Shown in pieces: positions 5,048 through 53,168 of a stretch of DNA of 64,000 nt. How positions within the stretch are numbered: position 1 is the stretch's first letter; every line of letters begins with the position of its first letter. The position numbers were made by a program, and so were the translations under genes. The DNA is from an uncultured Gammaproteobacteria bacterium (lineage in GTDB: Bacteria > Pseudomonadota > Gammaproteobacteria > GCA-001735895): contig CAXMRQ010000035.1 in the NCBI GenBank assembly GCA_964196115.1, forward strand, positions 8,149 through 72,148, given 5' to 3'. The notes under the pieces were generated by a model. That model saw only the letters and a program-made list of their open reading frames with translations. It did no database searches and had not been told where the DNA came from.

Positions 5048-5051
<4 letters not shown>
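4617..5051 (-). CDS. dtd: D-aminoacyl-tRNA deacylase
   Basis: 144 aa. MIVLLQRVSEAKVEI.G......I..GILAF.GV and a C-terminal NDGPVTFILD are Dtd hallmarks. Confidence 0.9.
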
Positions 5052-5992
<941 letters not shown>

Positions 5993-6059
5993 ATATAGTT
6001 AAATTTTCAGGTTAATTTAGTACAATTTAGCACAGAGAAATACGAAAAAAGCTTAAAGA

Positions 6060-6077
6060 TGTAAGAATTCGCCTACA
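6060..6077 (+). promoter_or_regulatory. GacA/UvrY-type upstream activating box (TGTAAG-N6-CCTACA)
   Basis: TGTAAGAATTCGCCTACA matches the palindromic consensus TGTAAG-N6-CTTACA found upstream of rsmX/Y/Z and csrB/C at 11 of 12 conserved positions. It lies ~90 nt upstream of a TATACT -10-like hexamer (6147-6152). Confidence 0.6.
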
Positions 6078-6157
6078 TTTTAAGACATGCTCTACTGACA
6101 TCAATTAAGTCTTGATTCGATATCAAACAGATCGCTGGCGTGACAGTATACTACCAC

Positions 6158-6429
6158 GAGCTAAGGACAGATCGCCAAGAAGGAAAAACGGTTAAATGTG
6201 CAGGAAAGCACGTTCAAGGATGGAAGAGCCAGGAAGGCTGTTCAAGGACGAATTACAGGGATGTTGATTTAAGGACGATTTAAACGGATTTAGGCTCAGG
6301 GACGAAATCACAGGGATGTGTAATCGAGGACGGTTTTAAAAGGATTTAGTTTCAAGGATGAAATGGAAGGAAATTTCTCCACCAGTATTACCCCGTAGCC
6401 CTGATCAAGGATTGATTGGGGCTTTTTTT
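6158..6429 (+). ncRNA. Csr/Rsm-family CsrA(RsmA)-sequestering small RNA (CsrB/RsmZ-like); 5' end approximate
   Basis: ORF-free gap between pip and ttcA. About 18 GGA triplets lie between 6165 and 6411, many in ACAGGGATG / CAAGGATG / CAAGGACG contexts resembling the CsrA binding consensus. It ends in a hairpin with GGA in the loop plus T7. A GacA-type box lies upstream. Confidence 0.7.
6397..6429 (+). terminator. Rho-independent terminator of the Csr/Rsm-like sRNA
   Basis: AGCCCTGATCAA-GGA-TTGATTGGGGCT forms a 12-bp stem (two G-U pairs) with a GGA loop, followed by TTTTTTT (6423-6429). Confidence 0.7.
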
Positions 6430-6439
6430 GGGGGGGGGG

Positions 6440-7297
6440 TTAACCCCGCAAAGCAACATCCACATCAAATGCGATATCCAGCTCCCTTAACTTATTTGCA
6501 TCATTTACGGTCAAATTTTCGAAATCGAATAATTCCCTATCAAGTAAATGTGAGGGGGTTACCCGACTTAAAGCATTGAATATATTTTGCACTCTTCCAG
6601 GGTACTGCTGATCCCACTCTGCCAACAAGGCTTTCACTGACTGGCGCTGCAAATTCTTCTGCGATCCGCATAGATTGCAGGGTATGATTGGAAATTCCCT
6701 CAATTCTGAATATTGCTTAATCAATCGCTCACGGACATAAGCCAGCGGGCGAATGACTACGTTTCTTTTATCATCACTGACCAGTTTTGCCGGCATCGAC
6801 TTAAGCCGACCGTTATAAAACATATTTAAAAAAGCGGTTTCTACCATGTCGTCCGCGTGATGTCCCAAAGCAATTTTGCTGGCGCCGATTTTTCCTGCGG
6901 TTTTATAAAGTACGCCGCGTCGTAGTCGTGAACACAGTGAACAGGTTGTTTTGCCTTCGGGAATTAGATTTTTCACAATACTGTAGGTATCTTCTTCGAC
7001 GATGTGATAGTCGATGCCGATCGATTGCAGATATGTCGGCAATACGTCTTCTGGAAAGCCCGGTTGCTTCTGGTCCAGGTTGACCGCGATCAGTTTAAAT
7101 TGGATCGGAGCAGCCTGCTGCAAACCGATTAGCATTTCGAGCATCGTATAACTATCTGCACCGCCCGACAGGCAAACCATAATGACATCACCTTGCTCGA
7201 TCATCTTAAAATCAGCCACTGCGCGACCGACCTGCGAGCGGATTTTGCGATATAACTTATCGCAAGCCGAGGGCATCGAATCCTGTCTATTTTTCAT
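6440..7297 (-). CDS. ttcA: tRNA 2-thiocytidine(32) synthetase
   Basis: 285 aa. Has the PP-loop SGGADS and the [10 protein letters not shown] and PCNLCGSQ cysteine motifs typical of TtcA. Confidence 0.85.
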
Positions 7298-7304
7298 AAC
7301 TGGT

Positions 7305-8756
7305 TTACTTTCTCCAGAAAGCGGGCGTAAAAAGCACTAGCAAAGTGAATATCTCAAGCCTGCCAAGCAACATAGCCAGCACCAATATCCACTTTGAAAC
7401 ATCGTTAATCGACGCGAAGTTCTGACCGACATCCCCCAGCCCCGGACCCAGGTTGTTAAGGCAGGCCGCCACTGCTGAAAATGCAGTCTCCTGATCAAGA
7501 CCAGTGGCCATCAGCGCTAAAATCATCAGCGCCGAAATGGCGAAATAGGCAGCGAAAAAACCCCAGACCGCCTCGATAACGTTTTCTGGCAGGGGTTTTT
7601 GTCCAATCTTTACCACTATTTGCGCATTGGGATGAATCAGGCGTTTTAACTCTCTCGCGCCCTGCTTTACCAGCAACAGAATCCGGATTACCTTAATTCC
7701 ACCCCCGGTCGAACCCGAGCAACCGCCAATAAAACTAACATATATTAGTAATACCGGCAAAAATCCAGGCCAGGTGTAATATTCGGCCGTGGTAAACCCG
7801 GTGGTAGTGCCGATCGAAACCACCTGGAACAGGCCTTCGACAATCGACTCGGCCGTGGAAGAAAAAGTCTTGGTCAGCTGTAAATAACCAATCGTGACGA
7901 TACTGACTACCGCTAACACCAGGGCATAGGTTCTGAATTCGGCATCACGCTGATAAGGCCTCAGTGATCGCCGCCGTATCGCCGTGAAGTGAATCGCAAA
8001 ATTGACGCCTGAAAGTAACATGAATACTACCGCAATTAATTCGATCGCAGTGCTATCAAAAAAACCAATGCTCGCATCATGGGTTGAGAAACCACCAATC
8101 GCAACTGTAGAAAACGCGTGTGCGATCGCATCAAACAGGGTCATCCCGGCAAACCAGTAAGCCAGCGCGCAACTGATTGTCAAACCCAGGTAGATATACC
8201 ATAAAGCCTTCGCGGTTTCGGTAATACGCGGTGTCAGCTTGTTATCCTTGACCGGCCCCGGAGTTTCCGCACGGTATAACTGCATGCCACCAATGCCTAA
8301 CATCGGTAATACGGCAACAGCGAGAACTATGATGCCCATGCCGCCGAGCCACTGCAATTCCTGGCGATAAAACAGTAACGCATGCGGCAACTGATCAATA
8401 TTGGTTATCACCGTAGCGCCGGTTGTGGTGAGTCCTGAAATCGATTCAAACACCGCATCGGTGACTGAAATTCCATTAAACCCCGATAAATATAAAGGCA
8501 GGCCACCAGCAATTCCGAGTACGCTCCAAAATAACACAACAACCAGGAAACCATCGCGCAAACGTAGTTCTTTTTTCTGATTATAAACCGGCAAATAAAG
8601 TAAAAACCCGAACACCAGGATAAGCACAAATGCTTCGAAAAATGGCACTACCGCGCCATCCGCGTAATAGATACCGACGAATAATGGTGGCAGCAAGCTA
8701 CTGCTGAAAATCATCAACAATAAACCGAGAATGCGCTGTATTACCAACAATTGCAT
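7305..8756 (-). CDS. trkH: Trk-type potassium uptake membrane subunit
   Basis: 483 aa polytopic protein with repeated selectivity-filter-like GLTTTGAT / TVAIGGFS / IGTTTGFT / [12 protein letters not shown] motifs. Confidence 0.9.
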
Positions 8757-10178: not shown

Positions 10179-10345
10179 TAGCCCGGAAATTTCATAAATC
10201 TGCGCGAAGATCGCGCAGTATATTGATTTCACAAGGAAATATCCGAAGAAGTCTCGTATCAATGATTCCGAGCGACTGAGGAACTATTTCTTGTGGAATC
10301 AATAGGCCAGTGAGATTGTGCATAATTTATGAATTTTCCGGGCTA
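10179..10345. repeat. 167-bp palindromic MITE-like intergenic element, family 1, copy B
   Basis: TAGCCCGGAAATTTCATAAAT ... ATTTATGAATTTTCCGGGCTA. Same length and orientation as 2357-2523, ~90% identical by eye. Its last 3 nt are the TAG stop (minus strand) of the response-regulator gene. Confidence 0.8.
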
Positions 10346-11614
10346 GGTTTGTTTCTTGTTATGCAGACCGAGCGCTTTCAGCTTGCGATATAAATTGGTT
10401 CGTTCCTGGCCTACGCGTTTCGCCAGCTCAGTTATATTATTTCCACTTAAGGCAAGCTGCCTGGAAAGAAATTCACGCTCAAATGCTTCTCTCGCTTCGC
10501 GTAAATCCATATCGAGATCAATCGTCAATTGCATTGTATTTCTACTACCTGGATGATAGGCACTATCACTCTTTTGCAAAAATTGTCTTATTTCAGTGAG
10601 ATCGATTCTCTCGCTATCACTATGGCCCAGCACCGTTTTTACAAACTCCTTTAATTGCGATATTTCACCGTCCCAGTGGTGATTGCGTAATAGATTCTGG
10701 GCCGCAACACCAAAATGCCGGTAAGGTAACTGTTCTTGTTCACTATACCAGTTAACATAGTATTCAAGTAGTTCAGGAATATCTTCCAGATGCTCATCTA
10801 AAGACGGTATGTGAATCGCTTCCTGCCAAAATTCCGCAAGCGCCGGTAACATCTGCTCATGATTAACCAGCCCCGAATAATCGAAACGACTGGATATAAT
10901 AAATCGATAAGCTGAGTCATTTTCACCATGACGGATGGCATCACATAGCCCCATTTGCTGATCCCTATCCAGCTCAGTTATTTCGTTAATATACAGATTT
11001 GTGCTTAAAGGTATGGAGTGCGAGATTAGGGATAATGGTTCCAGCGATTGCATCGCCACATTGGGATTGGAAAGCGCACTTAGATAGGCTGCCCAGATTT
11101 TACGGCCGCTACCATTAGCACCAGTAAGGAACAGGGCGGAACTAGTATTTTTAAGCGCCTGGATCTTCTGTTTTAGCTGCCGCACCAACTGGCTGGCCCC
11201 CACCGGCTCTTCAATTTTTCGCGGTAATTCGTTCTGTGATGAGCGACCTGTGCTGGTTAGTGCCGCCTTAACAGTACTCAACAGCTTGGCCATGGATAGC
11301 GGTTTTTCGACAAAATCGTATGCACCAAACCGTGTCGCTTCGACCGCCGTTTCTACCGTACCATGTCCAGACATCATCACTACCGGACAATGATCATTAG
11401 CCGAGGATTTCCATTCCTTGAGTAGTGTCACACCATCAATTTCCGGCATCCAGATATCAAGCAATACAAGGTCGGGATTGACGGTTTTGCGAATTTCATT
11501 AGCCGCCCTGGCGTGTTCAGCAATGTCAACAATATAGCCTTCGTCCTCAAGAATATCTTTTAGCAGGAACCTGATGTCTGGTTCGTCGTCAACCACCAGT
11601 ATTCTTGCACTCAT
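10343..11614 (-). CDS. NtrX-like response regulator (REC + degenerate AAA+ + Fis-type HTH)
   Basis: 423 aa. The receiver is ILVVDDEPDIR...DLVLLDIWMPEIDG. The central domain has only degenerate Walker A (GANGSGRK) and Walker B (LYINEI) motifs and no GAFTGA. The C-terminal HTH is NITELAKRVGQERTNLYRKLKALGL. Confidence 0.7.
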   Translation of the reverse strand: MSARILVVDDEPDIRFLLKDILEDEGYIVDIAEHARAANEIRKTVNPDLVLLDIWMPEIDGVTLLKEWKSSANDHCPVVMMSGHGTVETAVEATRFGAYDFVEKPLSMAKLLSTVKAALTSTGRSSQNELPRKIEEPVGASQLVRQLKQKIQALKNTSSALFLTGANGSGRKIWAAYLSALSNPNVAMQSLEPLSLISHSIPLSTNLYINEITELDRDQQMGLCDAIRHGENDSAYRFIISSRFDYSGLVNHEQMLPALAEFWQEAIHIPSLDEHLEDIPELLEYYVNWYSEQEQLPYRHFGVAAQNLLRNHHWDGEISQLKEFVKTVLGHSDSERIDLTEIRQFLQKSDSAYHPGSRNTMQLTIDLDMDLREAREAFEREFLSRQLALSGNNITELAKRVGQERTNLYRKLKALGLHNKKQT

Positions 11615-13857
11615 CGAATTGCCTCGACGCTGTTTTTAGTTTTTTGAGTTATTTTCATATTGTCATCTAGCTGCGAAATAGCCGGTAAGCGCAGGATAAA
11701 ACGGGCCCCTCCCTGCTCAGCTTTTTCGACCCAAACCATACCATTATGCTCGTCTACAATTTTTTTCACGATAGCTAATCCAAGTCCGCTGCCGGAGTTT
11801 TTGGTGGTGACATAGGGCTCGAACAAATTTTCGGCAACTTCATCCGCGATACCTTCGCCACTATCTTCCACAATCAATTCGATATACTCAATTCCATACT
11901 CTCGCAAGCAACGTGTTTGTAGCTTAATCCAGCCCTTGTCATTGATGGTTTCGAGACTGTTTTTAATCAAGTTATGTAATAATTGGCGCAATCGAACCCC
12001 ATCGGCCATTATCATTGTCACTCGCTGGTCAAGCTCAAGCTGAATAGATACTTCGCTATGGTTTTCATCATAGAGGGTGGTGACCTGCTCTATCATTTCG
12101 TTCAAATTTAACGACTCGGGCTTTTGCGAAGGCGACCGGGCGTAGTCTGTAAATGCGTTTACCATCGATTTCATCGCCTCGACCTGTTGCACTATAGTAT
12201 GGGTGTAACGATCCAGCATCTGCTGTTTATCAACTGCGACCTCGCCACTTAATTTACGCTGTAACCGCTCTGCTGATAACTGGATAGGGGTCAATGGGTT
12301 TTTAATTTCGTGCGCCATACGGCGCGCCATTTCACTCCAGGCCGAATCTTTCTGCGCTTGGATCAGCTCGGTTAGATCATCAACCACGACGACCTGTTCT
12401 TTACGGTTTTCGGATTCAGTTTGCGACTGAAGGGTAGCCCCGCGAACGCGCAGGATTTTTCTCCCGCTGTGTCCAAACACAACGACTTCTTCCTGCCAGT
12501 CATTCTCACTTTGTATATGACTTTGAACCGCTTCATAGAATTGTTGCATCATCGGATATTCGCGTACCACATCGTCAATATAAAGCTCGCTGAAAAAATA
12601 AGGTTCGATGCCAAAAATCGTACAGGCCGCAGGATTTCCGCTTTTGATAAATCCGGTCTCATCAATGGTTAACACACCCGAAGTGATATGCTCCATCACC
12701 GATTCCAGGTAATTTTTTTGCATCGCCTCGGCCAATTGACTTTGCTCGGCAATTGCACGCGTACGCGAAATCTTTCGTGTCATAGTATTGAAAGAACGCA
12801 GCAAAAAACCAAGTTCATCATCGCCTGAAACTTCGAGTTGCTTTTCGTAATCGCCTGCAGCTACGGATTTGGTGCCTTCCACCAGATCGTTTATCGGCGA
12901 AACCAGCTTACGCGCCGCAACAAACGCAATCCAGATGGCAGATAACACGCTGAGTAACCAGATCAGCGACAATGCCAGGGTGAAACTGGTTTTTAGCGGG
13001 TTGCGTAGCACGGCCAGTTCTTTATATTTATCAAAGGCGGTCTGCACACTAACGGTTAGTTCGTTTAAATGATCAGTAAACGGAAATAATGCCTGTAGCG
13101 TTTTAGACCTCTCAGTAGCATCGGAGCTTTGCACTAGCACAGCAATACGAATCGAAAGCCCGTAGATCGAATTTTCCTCCAGTCTCAGATAGTGTTTTTC
13201 AGCGTCGAGTTCACCAACGTCGGTCAGTGATAGTGCGCTAGGCAACTCGGTCGAATCGATACCACTTGAGGCAATGATAGACTGGTCGTGATCAATCAGG
13301 GTTAATTCATTTGCACCATGCTGATCGCGCGCGTTATCGAGATAAACAAATATAATTTCATCGTCTAACTCAGAAACTTCAATAGCAATCTGGCGAGTCT
13401 TATTCAGCGCTTCGCGTTTTCTTAAATCAATCGCGCTGCGCCCAAGCTGCAACGAGCCCTCCAGTGCCGTTTCGATGCCGACGTCGAACCAGCTGTCAAT
13501 ACTTCGGTGCAGGAAACTGAGCGAAAAGTAATAAACAATACTAACCGGGATAATGGTCAATAACACAAAAACACCGATCATACGGGCGGTCAAACGCGAA
13601 CCAATGGTCTTCAGACGATACTGGACAATTAGCTTGAAAAGGTTGTATATGATCAATGCCAATAGACCGATCAAGCCGATCACGTTGAAAAAGATCAGCC
13701 AGTTGTAATATTTGCCGAAGGTTGCCGAGTTTGAGGTTGCGTCGCTAATCGAATAGAGAGAAACCACCAGTAGGATTACCAGTGCCAAAATAGAAGCCGA
13801 ATTACGAATCGTACTATTCATAACTCGATTTATCGATTTCCCATAGGTACCAGTCAC
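11611..13857 (-). CDS. NtrY-like sensor histidine kinase (TM-HAMP-PAS-HisKA-HATPase)
   Basis: 748 aa with N-terminal TM helices, a HAMP-like segment (PINDLVEGTKSVAAGDY), a PAS-like region, the H-box MAHEIKNPLTPIQLSAERL, and N/G boxes (HNLIKNS, DSGEGI, GSGLGLAIV). An alternative start is at 13821 (MNSTIRN). Confidence 0.8.
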   Translation of the reverse strand: MTGTYGKSINRVMNSTIRNSASILALVILLVVSLYSISDATSNSATFGKYYNWLIFFNVIGLIGLLALIIYNLFKLIVQYRLKTIGSRLTARMIGVFVLLTIIPVSIVYYFSLSFLHRSIDSWFDVGIETALEGSLQLGRSAIDLRKREALNKTRQIAIEVSELDDEIIFVYLDNARDQHGANELTLIDHDQSIIASSGIDSTELPSALSLTDVGELDAEKHYLRLEENSIYGLSIRIAVLVQSSDATERSKTLQALFPFTDHLNELTVSVQTAFDKYKELAVLRNPLKTSFTLALSLIWLLSVLSAIWIAFVAARKLVSPINDLVEGTKSVAAGDYEKQLEVSGDDELGFLLRSFNTMTRKISRTRAIAEQSQLAEAMQKNYLESVMEHITSGVLTIDETGFIKSGNPAACTIFGIEPYFFSELYIDDVVREYPMMQQFYEAVQSHIQSENDWQEEVVVFGHSGRKILRVRGATLQSQTESENRKEQVVVVDDLTELIQAQKDSAWSEMARRMAHEIKNPLTPIQLSAERLQRKLSGEVAVDKQQMLDRYTHTIVQQVEAMKSMVNAFTDYARSPSQKPESLNLNEMIEQVTTLYDENHSEVSIQLELDQRVTMIMADGVRLRQLLHNLIKNSLETINDKGWIKLQTRCLREYGIEYIELIVEDSGEGIADEVAENLFEPYVTTKNSGSGLGLAIVKKIVDEHNGMVWVEKAEQGGARFILRLPAISQLDDNMKITQKTKNSVEAIR

Positions 13858-15763: not shown

Positions 15764-16685
15764 AATGCATGCCAGTCAAATTTTTTGCATTTAAAGCCTC
15801 TGCCGCGGTCAGGCGCTTTTTACCCGCAAACTGTAATTCACTGATTCGTAGCACTGAATCCCTGCAGCTCACGTAAACTCCATCTCGATTATGTTCAATA
15901 ATACGTCCGGGTATATCGTATTGGTGGGTGAGATCAATTTCAGCCCGCCACACTCTGAGCATTTTTTCATCCAGATGAGTAAAACTGACCGGCCAGGGAA
16001 CAAAGGCTCTGGTTTCCTGCCGTATTGTCACAGCATTCTTATCCCAGTCAATTTGCGCTTCCGCCTTCTCGAGTCGATGCGCGTAAGTTGCCCCTGCATC
16101 ATCCTGAGGTTGACCGCTCAGTTGGCTCGATTCAATTTGAGTCAGTGTTTGCATTAACAATTCAGCACCGAACTGTTTCAAGTGATCGTGCAAGTCGGCT
16201 GATGTCCATTCAGGGGAAATTGGCAATCTTATAGCAGCCAGCATATCACCCGTATCGAGCCCTTCATCCATTTGCATAATGGTAATTCCCGATGTTTTAT
16301 CGGCGGCCAAAATGGCTCGCTGTATCGGTGCAGCACCCCGCCATCTGGGTAGCAAAGAAGCATGAATATTGACACATCCAAAGCGTGGTGTATCGAGGAC
16401 CGGGACGGGCAGTAACAGTCCGTAGGCTGCAACCACCATTAAATCAGGTTTGAAAGCTGCAAGGCGCGTCTGCTCTGAAGTGTCTTTTAAAGACTGCGGT
16501 TGAATGACCAGGATATCATTCGCCAGCGCACAATCCTTAACTGGGCTTTGCATTAGCTTACGGCCACGGCCAGCAGGTCGGTCGGGCTGGGTATAAACCG
16601 CGACCACTTCGTGCTCAGATCGCAATAGCATCTCGAGGGCCGGAACTGCAAATTCCGGAGTGCCCGCAAAAATAATTTTTAACAT
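15750..16685 (-). CDS. fmt: Methionyl-tRNA formyltransferase
   Basis: 311 aa. MLKIIFAGTPEFAVP.L..L, QPDRPAGRG, NIHASLLPRWRGAAPIQRAI. Confidence 0.95.
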   Translation of the reverse strand: MLKIIFAGTPEFAVPALEMLLRSEHEVVAVYTQPDRPAGRGRKLMQSPVKDCALANDILVIQPQSLKDTSEQTRLAAFKPDLMVVAAYGLLLPVPVLDTPRFGCVNIHASLLPRWRGAAPIQRAILAADKTSGITIMQMDEGLDTGDMLAAIRLPISPEWTSADLHDHLKQFGAELLMQTLTQIESSQLSGQPQDDAGATYAHRLEKAEAQIDWDKNAVTIRQETRAFVPWPVSFTHLDEKMLRVWRAEIDLTHQYDIPGRIIEHNRDGVYVSCRDSVLRISELQFAGKKRLTAAEALNAKNLTGMHFDQG

Positions 16686-16709
16686 TGTGTCTGGGGGATT
16701 CCTTATGGG

Positions 16710-17219
16710 TTAGCTCAATGTTCCTTGTTTTTTTTGTTTTACCAGTTTTTTACGAATCCGGTCTCGCTTCAAGGTGGATATATAATCAACAAACAACTTT
16801 CCCTCTAAATGATCCATTTCATGCTGGATACAGACGGCTTCAATTCCTTCCGAATCGAATTCAATGAATTGTCCATCTGTGTCCTGGGCTTTAACACGAA
16901 TATGTTCCGCGCGGATCACTGCTTCGTAAAATCCGGGTACCGAGAGACAGCCTTCATCGGACTCTTCCTCACCATCGGCCTCTAATATCTCCGGGTTAAT
17001 CAGGCATCTCGGCTGATTACGTTGCTCCGACACATCCATTACTAATAGACGTAAATGCTGGTCAACCTGGGTTGCCGCCAATCCTATGCCCGGCGCCTCG
17101 TACATTGTTTCAAACATATCACTGACCAGTTTTTTCAGTTTAGCGTCGAATTCTGAGACCGGCCCTGCAACCGTGCGAAGTTTTGGGTCTGGAAAATGTA
17201 AAATATTTAATAAAGCCAT
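16710..17219 (-). CDS. def: Peptide deformylase
   Basis: 169 aa with the three PDF motifs [17 protein letters not shown] and QHEMDHL. Confidence 0.95.
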
Positions 17220-52569: not shown

Positions 52570-52712
52570 CGCGCGATTCTACTATCAGTGAATGCGCATG
52601 CATATCGATTATTGAAGGTTCAGATGGCTTGCTAGCCCTATTATTTGCTTTTAACGATGCGATGAAAAAATTATACTGCAAGTAACCTCTTGCAGTAATC
52701 ACGAGCCTGCCA

Positions 52713-53168
52713 ATGACTAGTTTCAACTTCCATTCCGAGCCACTACAGGATAGCTGGCTTGATGCCTATGGGCACTTAAACGAGGCCTATTATCTGCTGC
52801 CGTTTACCAATACAACCTGGAAATTTCAGCATAATTTCGGTATTGGTGTCGATTATTTCGAGCGCACTGGCTGTGCCATTTATACCGTGGAAACCCACCT
52901 GCGCTATCTGAACGATGTACGATCACCGTCGGTAATGGACATCGAAACAATCGTGCTTGGGTCGGATGCAAAAAAAATCTGGTTCGCCCACAAAATGCTG
53001 GTCGAAGGTGATCTATGCGCCACCGGTGAGTTTATGGTTTTGCATTATGGCACTCGTGAATCACGCACTATCGAAATGCCCGAATCGGTTCAGGCTGCAC
53101 TAAAGCAGGCGGAGGTATCCGAAAAACCAGACTGGACAGGACGCCATATTAGCCTGCAAAAACGCTAG
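52713..53168 (+). CDS. Hotdog-fold acyl-CoA thioesterase (4HBT/YbgC-like)
   Basis: 151 aa. D.YGH.N.A.Y near the N-terminus and the overall size fit the 4HBT family. Confidence 0.65.
   Translation: MTSFNFHSEPLQDSWLDAYGHLNEAYYLLPFTNTTWKFQHNFGIGVDYFERTGCAIYTVETHLRYLNDVRSPSVMDIETIVLGSDAKKIWFAHKMLVEGDLCATGEFMVLHYGTRESRTIEMPESVQAALKQAEVSEKPDWTGRHISLQKR

Follow-up and report, generated by a model that had tools for sequence, protein, structure and literature searches.

The 447-bp spacer between pip and ttcA (positions 5993-6439 of the window, i.e., the whole 64,000-nt stretch of DNA analyzed here) very probably holds an independent gene for a non-coding RNA of approximately 272 nt with the function of a CsrA/RsmA sponge, as judged from its sequence and from that of its relatives. 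Within the known class of Csr/Rsm sponges, we regard the predicted RNA as a new and lineage-specific member, and together with its homologs it most likely represents a conserved, uncatalogued sRNA family in uncultured marine Gammaproteobacteria. Five sequence criteria for CsrA-sequestering sRNAs were introduced by Kulkarni et al. in 2006 (PMC1488887): an intergenic location, a high density of CsrA-binding motifs, a Rho-independent terminator, repeated placement of GGA motifs in loops or unpaired stretches, and an upstream site that is conserved. The same criteria found CsrB-type RNAs that were then validated in Shewanella and Marinomonas (PMC3171408, PMC8523701). All 5 properties are found in the candidate from the pip-ttcA gap, the features of which are compiled in Table 1.

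Table 1. Coordinates of the predicted sRNA gene, its promoter region and the flanking genes within the window.
Feature	Position	Strand	Basis
pip (prolyl aminopeptidase)	5048-5992	-	TIGR01249, 417 bits
Putative GacA/UvrY-type upstream activating sequence, TGTAAGAATTCGCCTACA	6060-6077		1 mismatch to TGTAAGN6CTTACA
Conserved promoter block ACTGACA	6094-6100		A1 columns 55-61, ungapped
Conserved promoter block CGATATC	6118-6124		Ungapped in A1; also among 40 unique promoters
-10 element TATACT	6147-6152	+	CA.TAT invariant in A1
Predicted sRNA transcript, ~272 nt, 18 GGA	6157-6429	+	-10 element and invariant AC
Conserved 5' domain (~70 nt), four GGA at homologous positions	6157-6228	+	A2, 37 sequences
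Hairpin 1	6157-6174	+	Pair counting, 37 sequences
Hairpin 2, loop AGGAAA	Stem 6198-6201 with 6208-6211	+	Pair counting, 37 sequences
Tandem GGA modules	6240-6364	+	Tandem Repeats Finder; block-wise variable region in A3
Conserved 3' box, UUCUCCACC	6375-6383	+	Invariant TTCTCC in A3
Intrinsic terminator, 12-bp stem, 3-nt GGA loop, T7	6397-6429	+	-15.8 kcal/mol, z = -4.0
ttcA	6440-7297	-	NF007972, 455 bits

The most conspicuous property of the spacer is its load of GGA motifs. A preliminary description of this DNA had listed 18 of them on the + strand, at 6165, 6182, 6203, 6218, 6222, 6232, 6246, 6259, 6273, 6286, 6300, 6314, 6328, 6342, 6356, 6365, 6369, and 6409, and every coordinate proved exact. 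The - strand contributes a single GGA in the same span (at 6378), and the background, counted in 250-nt stretches across the 64 kb of the window, amounts to 3.0 ± 2.0 GGA per strand. The Poisson probability of finding at least 18 GGA in 273 nt is 1.5e-8 at the background rate of the window and 5.5e-4 under the A/G-rich composition of the RNA itself. Furthermore, all 18 GGA in the predicted RNA occur as AGGA or ARGGA, and the density of these motifs reaches 17 in the best 240-nt stretch compared to 8 in the next best across the 64 kb. The highest 250-nt GGA count outside the sRNA locus is 12; the corresponding spot (approximately 16646-16900, - strand) was rejected as a second sRNA candidate because it lies within the coding sequence of def (peptide deformylase). 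The CAAGGA(T/C)G-type contexts that had been pointed out previously were likewise recovered, with ACAGGGATGT occurring twice (6255-6264 and 6310-6319) and CAAGGA(T/C)G 3 times. The full SELEX consensus RTACARGGATGT, allowing up to 2 mismatches, is not enriched window-wide (11 matches found versus 12.9 expected); 3 of these 11 matches are located inside the RNA, including the only one of the window with a single mismatch.

Known CsrA ligands present GGA in a hexaloop or a single-stranded region, the stems of SELEX ligands comprise at most 4 contiguous bp, and a CsrA dimer bridges sites that are 10-63 nt apart (PMC7652899). Structure prediction for the window RNA agrees moderately well with such a presentation: the GGA motifs have a mean unpaired probability of 0.72, compared to 0.45 over the whole RNA (0.80 versus 0.44 for Escherichia coli CsrB in the same analysis), and local folds leave 15 of the 18 GGA unpaired. 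Moreover, 8 of the 18 are placed in hairpin loops closed by stems of 3-6 bp, compared to 4.2 ± 1.8 in flank-shuffled controls, and the 14-nt spacing of GGA motifs in the window falls within the range that can be bridged. The minimum free energy of the whole RNA is unremarkable (z = -1.07 for the + strand and -2.06 for the - strand) and was therefore left out as evidence.

Relatives were collected by searching GTDB species genomes with the TtcA sequence of the window, which yielded 10 loci from metagenome-assembled genomes (MAGs) of uncultured Gammaproteobacteria (L001-L009 and L022) with TtcA identities of 72-85%, compared to 61-66% for the best named genera. In 9 of the 10 loci, the pip-ttcA spacer contains a GGA-containing element that is encoded on the strand opposite to both genes and ends in a terminator. 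In L001, the closest GTDB relative, a 448-aa ORF (6029-7375, - strand) is inserted between the element and ttcA, and the element stays with pip; thus, the sRNA is linked to pip and not to ttcA. A degenerate search pattern was then composed of promoter invariants only, requiring neither downstream GGA nor hairpins or terminators. This pattern has 1 match in the window (0 expected), matches exactly the 10 MAG loci among 80 collected loci, and retrieved 40 contigs from the JGI metagenome collection, all of which carry a pip homolog (66-89% identity) adjoining the match, with ttcA next in most cases. The promoter invariance of these 40 pattern-selected loci is partly given by construction; downstream, GGA motifs are found in all but 1 of them, and hairpins and terminators are present as well. 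Conservation of the pip-ttcA region in relatives, a point raised by the preliminary description, is thus seen in the TtcA-found MAG loci as well as in 40 metagenome loci. The element is always divergent from pip, and its promoter and terminator are conserved across 50 loci. Pip identity to the window ranges from 66 to 100% over the collected loci, and their GC content from 42 to 66%. Among the closest relatives, 3 contigs with an identical Pip protein share the 447-bp spacer and its 18 GGA, with only 5 variable columns, and assembly GCA_964195535.1 contains a spacer identical to that of the window.

The palindromic box upstream of the predicted RNA had been proposed to match the GacA/UvrY activating sequence, and TGTAAGAATTCGCCTACA indeed agrees with 11 of the 12 specified positions of the consensus TGTAAGN6CTTACA (PMC8523701, PMC3171408), the canonical form of which was defined for the RsmX/Y/Z genes (PMC8523701). 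Since a box with 1 mismatch is expected 0.10 times per window and was seen in 9 of 100 shuffles, the box alone is only suggestive. Its context adds to this: in an alignment of the window and 9 distinct TtcA-found loci (A1; 136 nt that begin 20 nt ahead of the box and end shortly after the first GGA), not a single gap is required, and the half-sites GTA.G and CCTAC, separated by N6, are invariant, as are ACTGACA, (C)GATAT, CA.TAT(ACT), and an AC at the predicted start. The family consensus of the box reads (T)GTA(A/G)G-N6-CCTAC(A). From its start to the first GGA, the distance is exactly 105 nt in every locus, i.e., the upstream site is conserved at a fixed spacing across the TtcA-found loci, whereas the distance to the start codon of pip varies between approximately 23 and 88 nt. 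Because of this difference, we take the box to be coupled to the promoter of the RNA and not to pip. Elsewhere in the window, a perfect palindrome, TGCAAG-N6-CTTGCA, is located at 52677-52694 between divergent ORFs, 19 bp upstream of the ORF at 52713-53168 (+ strand); with 2 mismatches to the GacA box it is at chance level and may be an operator of another regulator.

Upstream of the predicted start, no good -35 element accompanies the -10 element, as would be anticipated if the promoter depends on an activator, and a sigma-70 scan that requires both hexamers called no + strand promoter here. The invariant AC and the -10 element put the predicted 5' end at 6156-6159, and thereby the center of the box at approximately -90. 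Columns that were not forced by the search pattern are also conserved among 40 unique promoters, and the ACTGACA and CGATATC blocks could bind an accessory factor or belong to the divergent pip promoter. Every family member has CCTAC as its right half-site in place of the canonical CTTAC, and a different regulator is therefore conceivable: the RNA could be real and be driven by a regulator other than GacA/UvrY, with GTA(A/G)G-N6-CCTAC serving as the operator of another dimeric factor, possibly also for the divergent pip promoter. The 2 additional conserved blocks between box and -10 element, the proximity of the pip start codon, and a weak sigma-70-like promoter on the - strand that abuts the box (6104-6077) are compatible with such a scenario. 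We nevertheless consider it unlikely, given the near-complete fit of the box, the fixed spacing on the side of the sRNA only, a report from Marinomonas of a TGTAGG-containing GacA-type box in front of csrA1 (PMC8523701), and the rule that GGA-rich sRNAs in Gammaproteobacteria are preceded by GacA-type boxes (PMC1488887, PMC3171408).

Across the family, 39 distinct RNAs could be delimited, ranging from 121 to 305 nt in length and from 0 to 18 GGA. They have in common the 5' domain of approximately 70 nt, a 3' UUCUCC box, and the terminator. The GGA motifs of the 5' domain are located at about RNA positions 9, 26-27, 46-47, and 60-62. RNAalifold returned an empty consensus structure for this domain, and the 2 hairpins named in Table 1 were therefore tested by pair counting in 37 sequences. 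Here, 78% of cells are paired versus 11-40% with slid 3' partners, 27 cells carry changes on both sides, and the observed score was attained in 0 of 500 shuffles, so that covariation supports 2 predicted GGA-presenting hairpins at the 5' end. A family model of the domain (R1) scores 59.5 bits on the window and detects no second copy or paralog within the 64 kb. At the opposite end, the last GGA had been described as the loop of a 12-bp terminator hairpin followed by T7, which was confirmed with 12 pairs (hairpin 6397-6423, T7 6423-6429); this stem and its GGA loop are conserved in those relatives with an expanded GGA load, including paired changes such as GATC/GATT to GGTC/GACC. Between the T-run and the stop codon of ttcA (TTA on the + strand, 6440-6442) lies a G10 homopolymer (6430-6439) of variable length, with the near-identical strain L123 showing G6431T and one extra G.

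The region between these conserved ends accounts for the differences in size. In an expanded clade, consisting of the window, L114, L091, L105, L090, L089, L094, and L001, the RNAs carry 10-18 GGA, and their middle part varies in blocks of 14, 28, or 56 nt (alignment A3), with consecutive GGA motifs 14 nt apart. The family maximum of 18 is reached by the window and L114. In the window, Tandem Repeats Finder reports a period of 27 nt with 2.9 copies and a period of 56 nt with 2.3 copies in the tandem region, where 9 GGA are spaced by 13-14 nt; the architecture is that of a 14-nt unit arranged as 27-28-nt and 56-nt repeats. By this sequence pattern, the 18 GGA of the window are the apparent product of tandem amplification of a 14-nt-phased GGA module. 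Short-form relatives measure 121-156 nt and contain 2-9 GGA, and approximately 10 members of higher GC content (0.53-0.66) have only 2-3 GGA, no more than expected by chance. The extreme case is L084 (2154-2274, + strand), a locus devoid of GGA that keeps the promoter, 5' hairpin, CUCC box, and terminator. The 3' box, which takes the form UUCUCUCCUCGAGAUA in the short-form relatives, is present in all short forms including this one; it is also retained in the other high-GC metagenome members of low GGA content (0-3), among them L009, L082, and L103. As these members are poor in GGA yet keep the core, the GGA load is clade-specific. Evidently, what is conserved in the family can be maintained without GGA numbers typical of a sponge, and this core may serve a different role.

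This variation bears on a second alternative, in which the RNA would exert its effect chiefly through base-pairing, or via some protein different from CsrA. The conserved 5' hairpin would then form its core together with the UUCUCC box near the 3' end, and the GGA repeats would be a secondary addition. Apart from the GGA-poor members, this alternative draws on the sequence of the box itself, which is complementary to GGA/GGAG, such that CUCC would fit Shine-Dalgarno sequences of the GGAG type. However, the clade of the window maintains 10-18 GGA and their 14-nt phasing while the surrounding sequence diverges, precisely the pattern that is predicted by selection on GGA presentation, and no target for base-pairing has been identified. 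For the window RNA, we therefore regard this alternative as very unlikely and retain the sponge as the preferred reading.

With regard to coding potential, the gap had been judged to lack a credible ORF, an assessment that held: Pfam has no match for any of its ORFs (47, 39, and 73 aa), the one of 47 aa begins upstream of the -10 element, and the longest sense ORF within the predicted RNA comprises 24 aa. Among the relatives, no ORF is conserved in either position or length, and the RNAs of the expanded clade differ in length from that of the window by 38, 26, 52, 80, and 86 nt, none of which is a multiple of 3; a small-protein gene was rejected on these grounds. While Tandem Repeats Finder detects repeats and the region overlaps two mechanically called ORFs, one of 47 and one of 73 aa, a non-functional repeat expansion or a small-protein gene in the spacer is thus extremely improbable, given also the 18-to-1 strand asymmetry of GGA, the promoter and terminator shared by 50 loci, and the maintenance of the spacer in near-identical strains.

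The preliminary description had further suggested that the RNA is lineage-specific, dissimilar to the individual members known, and missed by covariance models. These suggestions were borne out. In gathering mode, Rfam 15 has no match, neither in the whole window nor in the 10 relatives searched, and no family reaches its gathering score. The closest approach is CsrB (RF00018) with 19.6 bits versus a threshold of 71 (E = 0.0026 in a search of 701 nt, with low posterior probabilities); CsrC, RsmY, PrrB_RsmZ, and rsmX give no hit at E ≤ 10 in 5900-6600, and none of the Csr/Rsm families of Rfam gives one at E ≤ 1 in 12 related loci. The weak CsrB match and terminator-driven matches (e.g., SdsR) obtained in E-value mode were rejected as indications of family membership. 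Similarity to csrB or csrC of E. coli is lacking as well: blastn of the locus against 5,426 complete E. coli genomes returned no match, and the R1 score of E. coli csrB is 5.3 bits. Nor does R1 recover a homolog next to ttcA in 70 loci of named genera (Vibrio, Photobacterium, Pseudoalteromonas, Halomonas, Halieaceae, etc.), and a search of the literature for a connection of pip or ttcA with Csr sRNAs found nothing relevant. Such isolation has precedents, since gammaproteobacterial lineages possess their own poorly conserved Csr sRNA genes that are found by motif density and not by homology (PMC11882849, PMC8523701). One example of lineage-specific marine Csr sRNAs is the set Pf1-Pf3 of Pseudoalteromonas fuliginea (PMC11882849), which we compared by description only; R1 has no match in the ttcA-proximal loci of Pseudoalteromonas (L016-L020 and others).

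In its general layout, the predicted RNA resembles E. coli CsrB, a long RNA with multiple sites. The GGA density is comparable (18 in 273 nt, or 0.066 per nt, versus 22 in 369 nt, or 0.060 per nt, in CsrB), and the predicted placement of GGA, mostly unpaired or in short hairpin loops, is shared (0.72 versus 0.80, as given above). In common with the CsrB-type sRNAs of E. coli, Vibrio, Shewanella, and Marinomonas, it is an orphan intergenic gene with an 18-bp palindrome of the GacA/UvrY type upstream and an intrinsic terminator (PMC1488887, PMC3171408, PMC8523701). It differs from E. coli CsrB in the position of the box center (near -90 versus -182.5), in the regular 14-nt spacing of its GGA motifs as opposed to irregular distances of 4-32 nt, and in its genomic neighbors (pip/ttcA versus syd/yqcC). 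The short-form relatives, in turn, share size and layout, i.e., GacA box and terminator, with RsmY, RsmZ, and RsmX of Pseudomonas (RF00195, RF00166, and RF02144). Compared to RsmX/Y/Z, the window RNA is twice as long and has 2-3 times as many GGA, going by typical GGA numbers of RsmY and RsmZ.

All features of CsrB/RsmY/RsmZ-type sponges that had been listed for this locus are hence present and support the sponge reading, in which we infer transcription, activator identity, and CsrA binding from sequence. In the mechanism that we propose, a phosphorylated response regulator of the GacA/UvrY type would bind the palindromic box centered about 90 bp upstream of the start and activate a promoter that has a good -10 element and no real -35 element. 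The intrinsic terminator would end transcription 10 nt short of the stop codon of the convergent ttcA gene. The resulting RNA would present its 18 AGGA/ARGGA sites single-stranded or in very short hairpin loops, and a CsrA dimer could span sites spaced by 14 nt with its two RNA-binding faces, such that one RNA could accommodate up to approximately nine dimers. CsrA would in this way be titrated off mRNA leaders, relieving CsrA-mediated control. Genes for CsrA and GacA/UvrY are presumably present in this genome, as in Gammaproteobacteria in general. Using tblastn with CsrA and RsmA, no csrA match was obtained in the window or in any collected locus, and the same regions contain no gacA/uvrY orthologue, the matches to UvrY being distant receiver-domain or NarL-type sequences of at most 35% identity. 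The weak receiver-domain matches in the window stem from an NtrX-like, sigma-54-type response regulator and a 748-aa sensor kinase, which adjoin trkA (10343-13857, - strand); neither protein is an orthologue of GacA or GacS.

A more far-reaching interpretation, which we consider rather unlikely, takes the locus as a single sRNA gene, orthologous and syntenic among the relatives and preceded by a GacA-type box, whose products extend from the size of RsmZ (0-5 GGA) to that of CsrB (18 GGA) by tandem amplification of the 14-nt-phased module, and whose invariant 5' hairpin and 3' UUCUCC box have in addition a second, CsrA-independent function. If true, this function might consist of, for example, base-pairing to Shine-Dalgarno sequences or self-masking of the GGA sites, and the graded sizes and GGA numbers would provide a direct series for how sponge capacity evolves.

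Irrespective of this interpretation, a sponge mechanism is what specialists would expect in a gammaproteobacterium, and the surprise of the finding is therefore limited, while the modular expansion is of moderate evolutionary interest. As no Rfam family matches, the RNA would escape Rfam-based annotation pipelines, and the alignments together with the promoter pattern offer a basis from which a new Rfam family can be developed. The locus would supply a missing piece of the Gac/Csr cascade for a broad clade of uncultured marine Gammaproteobacteria, and it offers a clean natural series for following how CsrA sites change in number and spacing as a predicted sponge RNA evolves.
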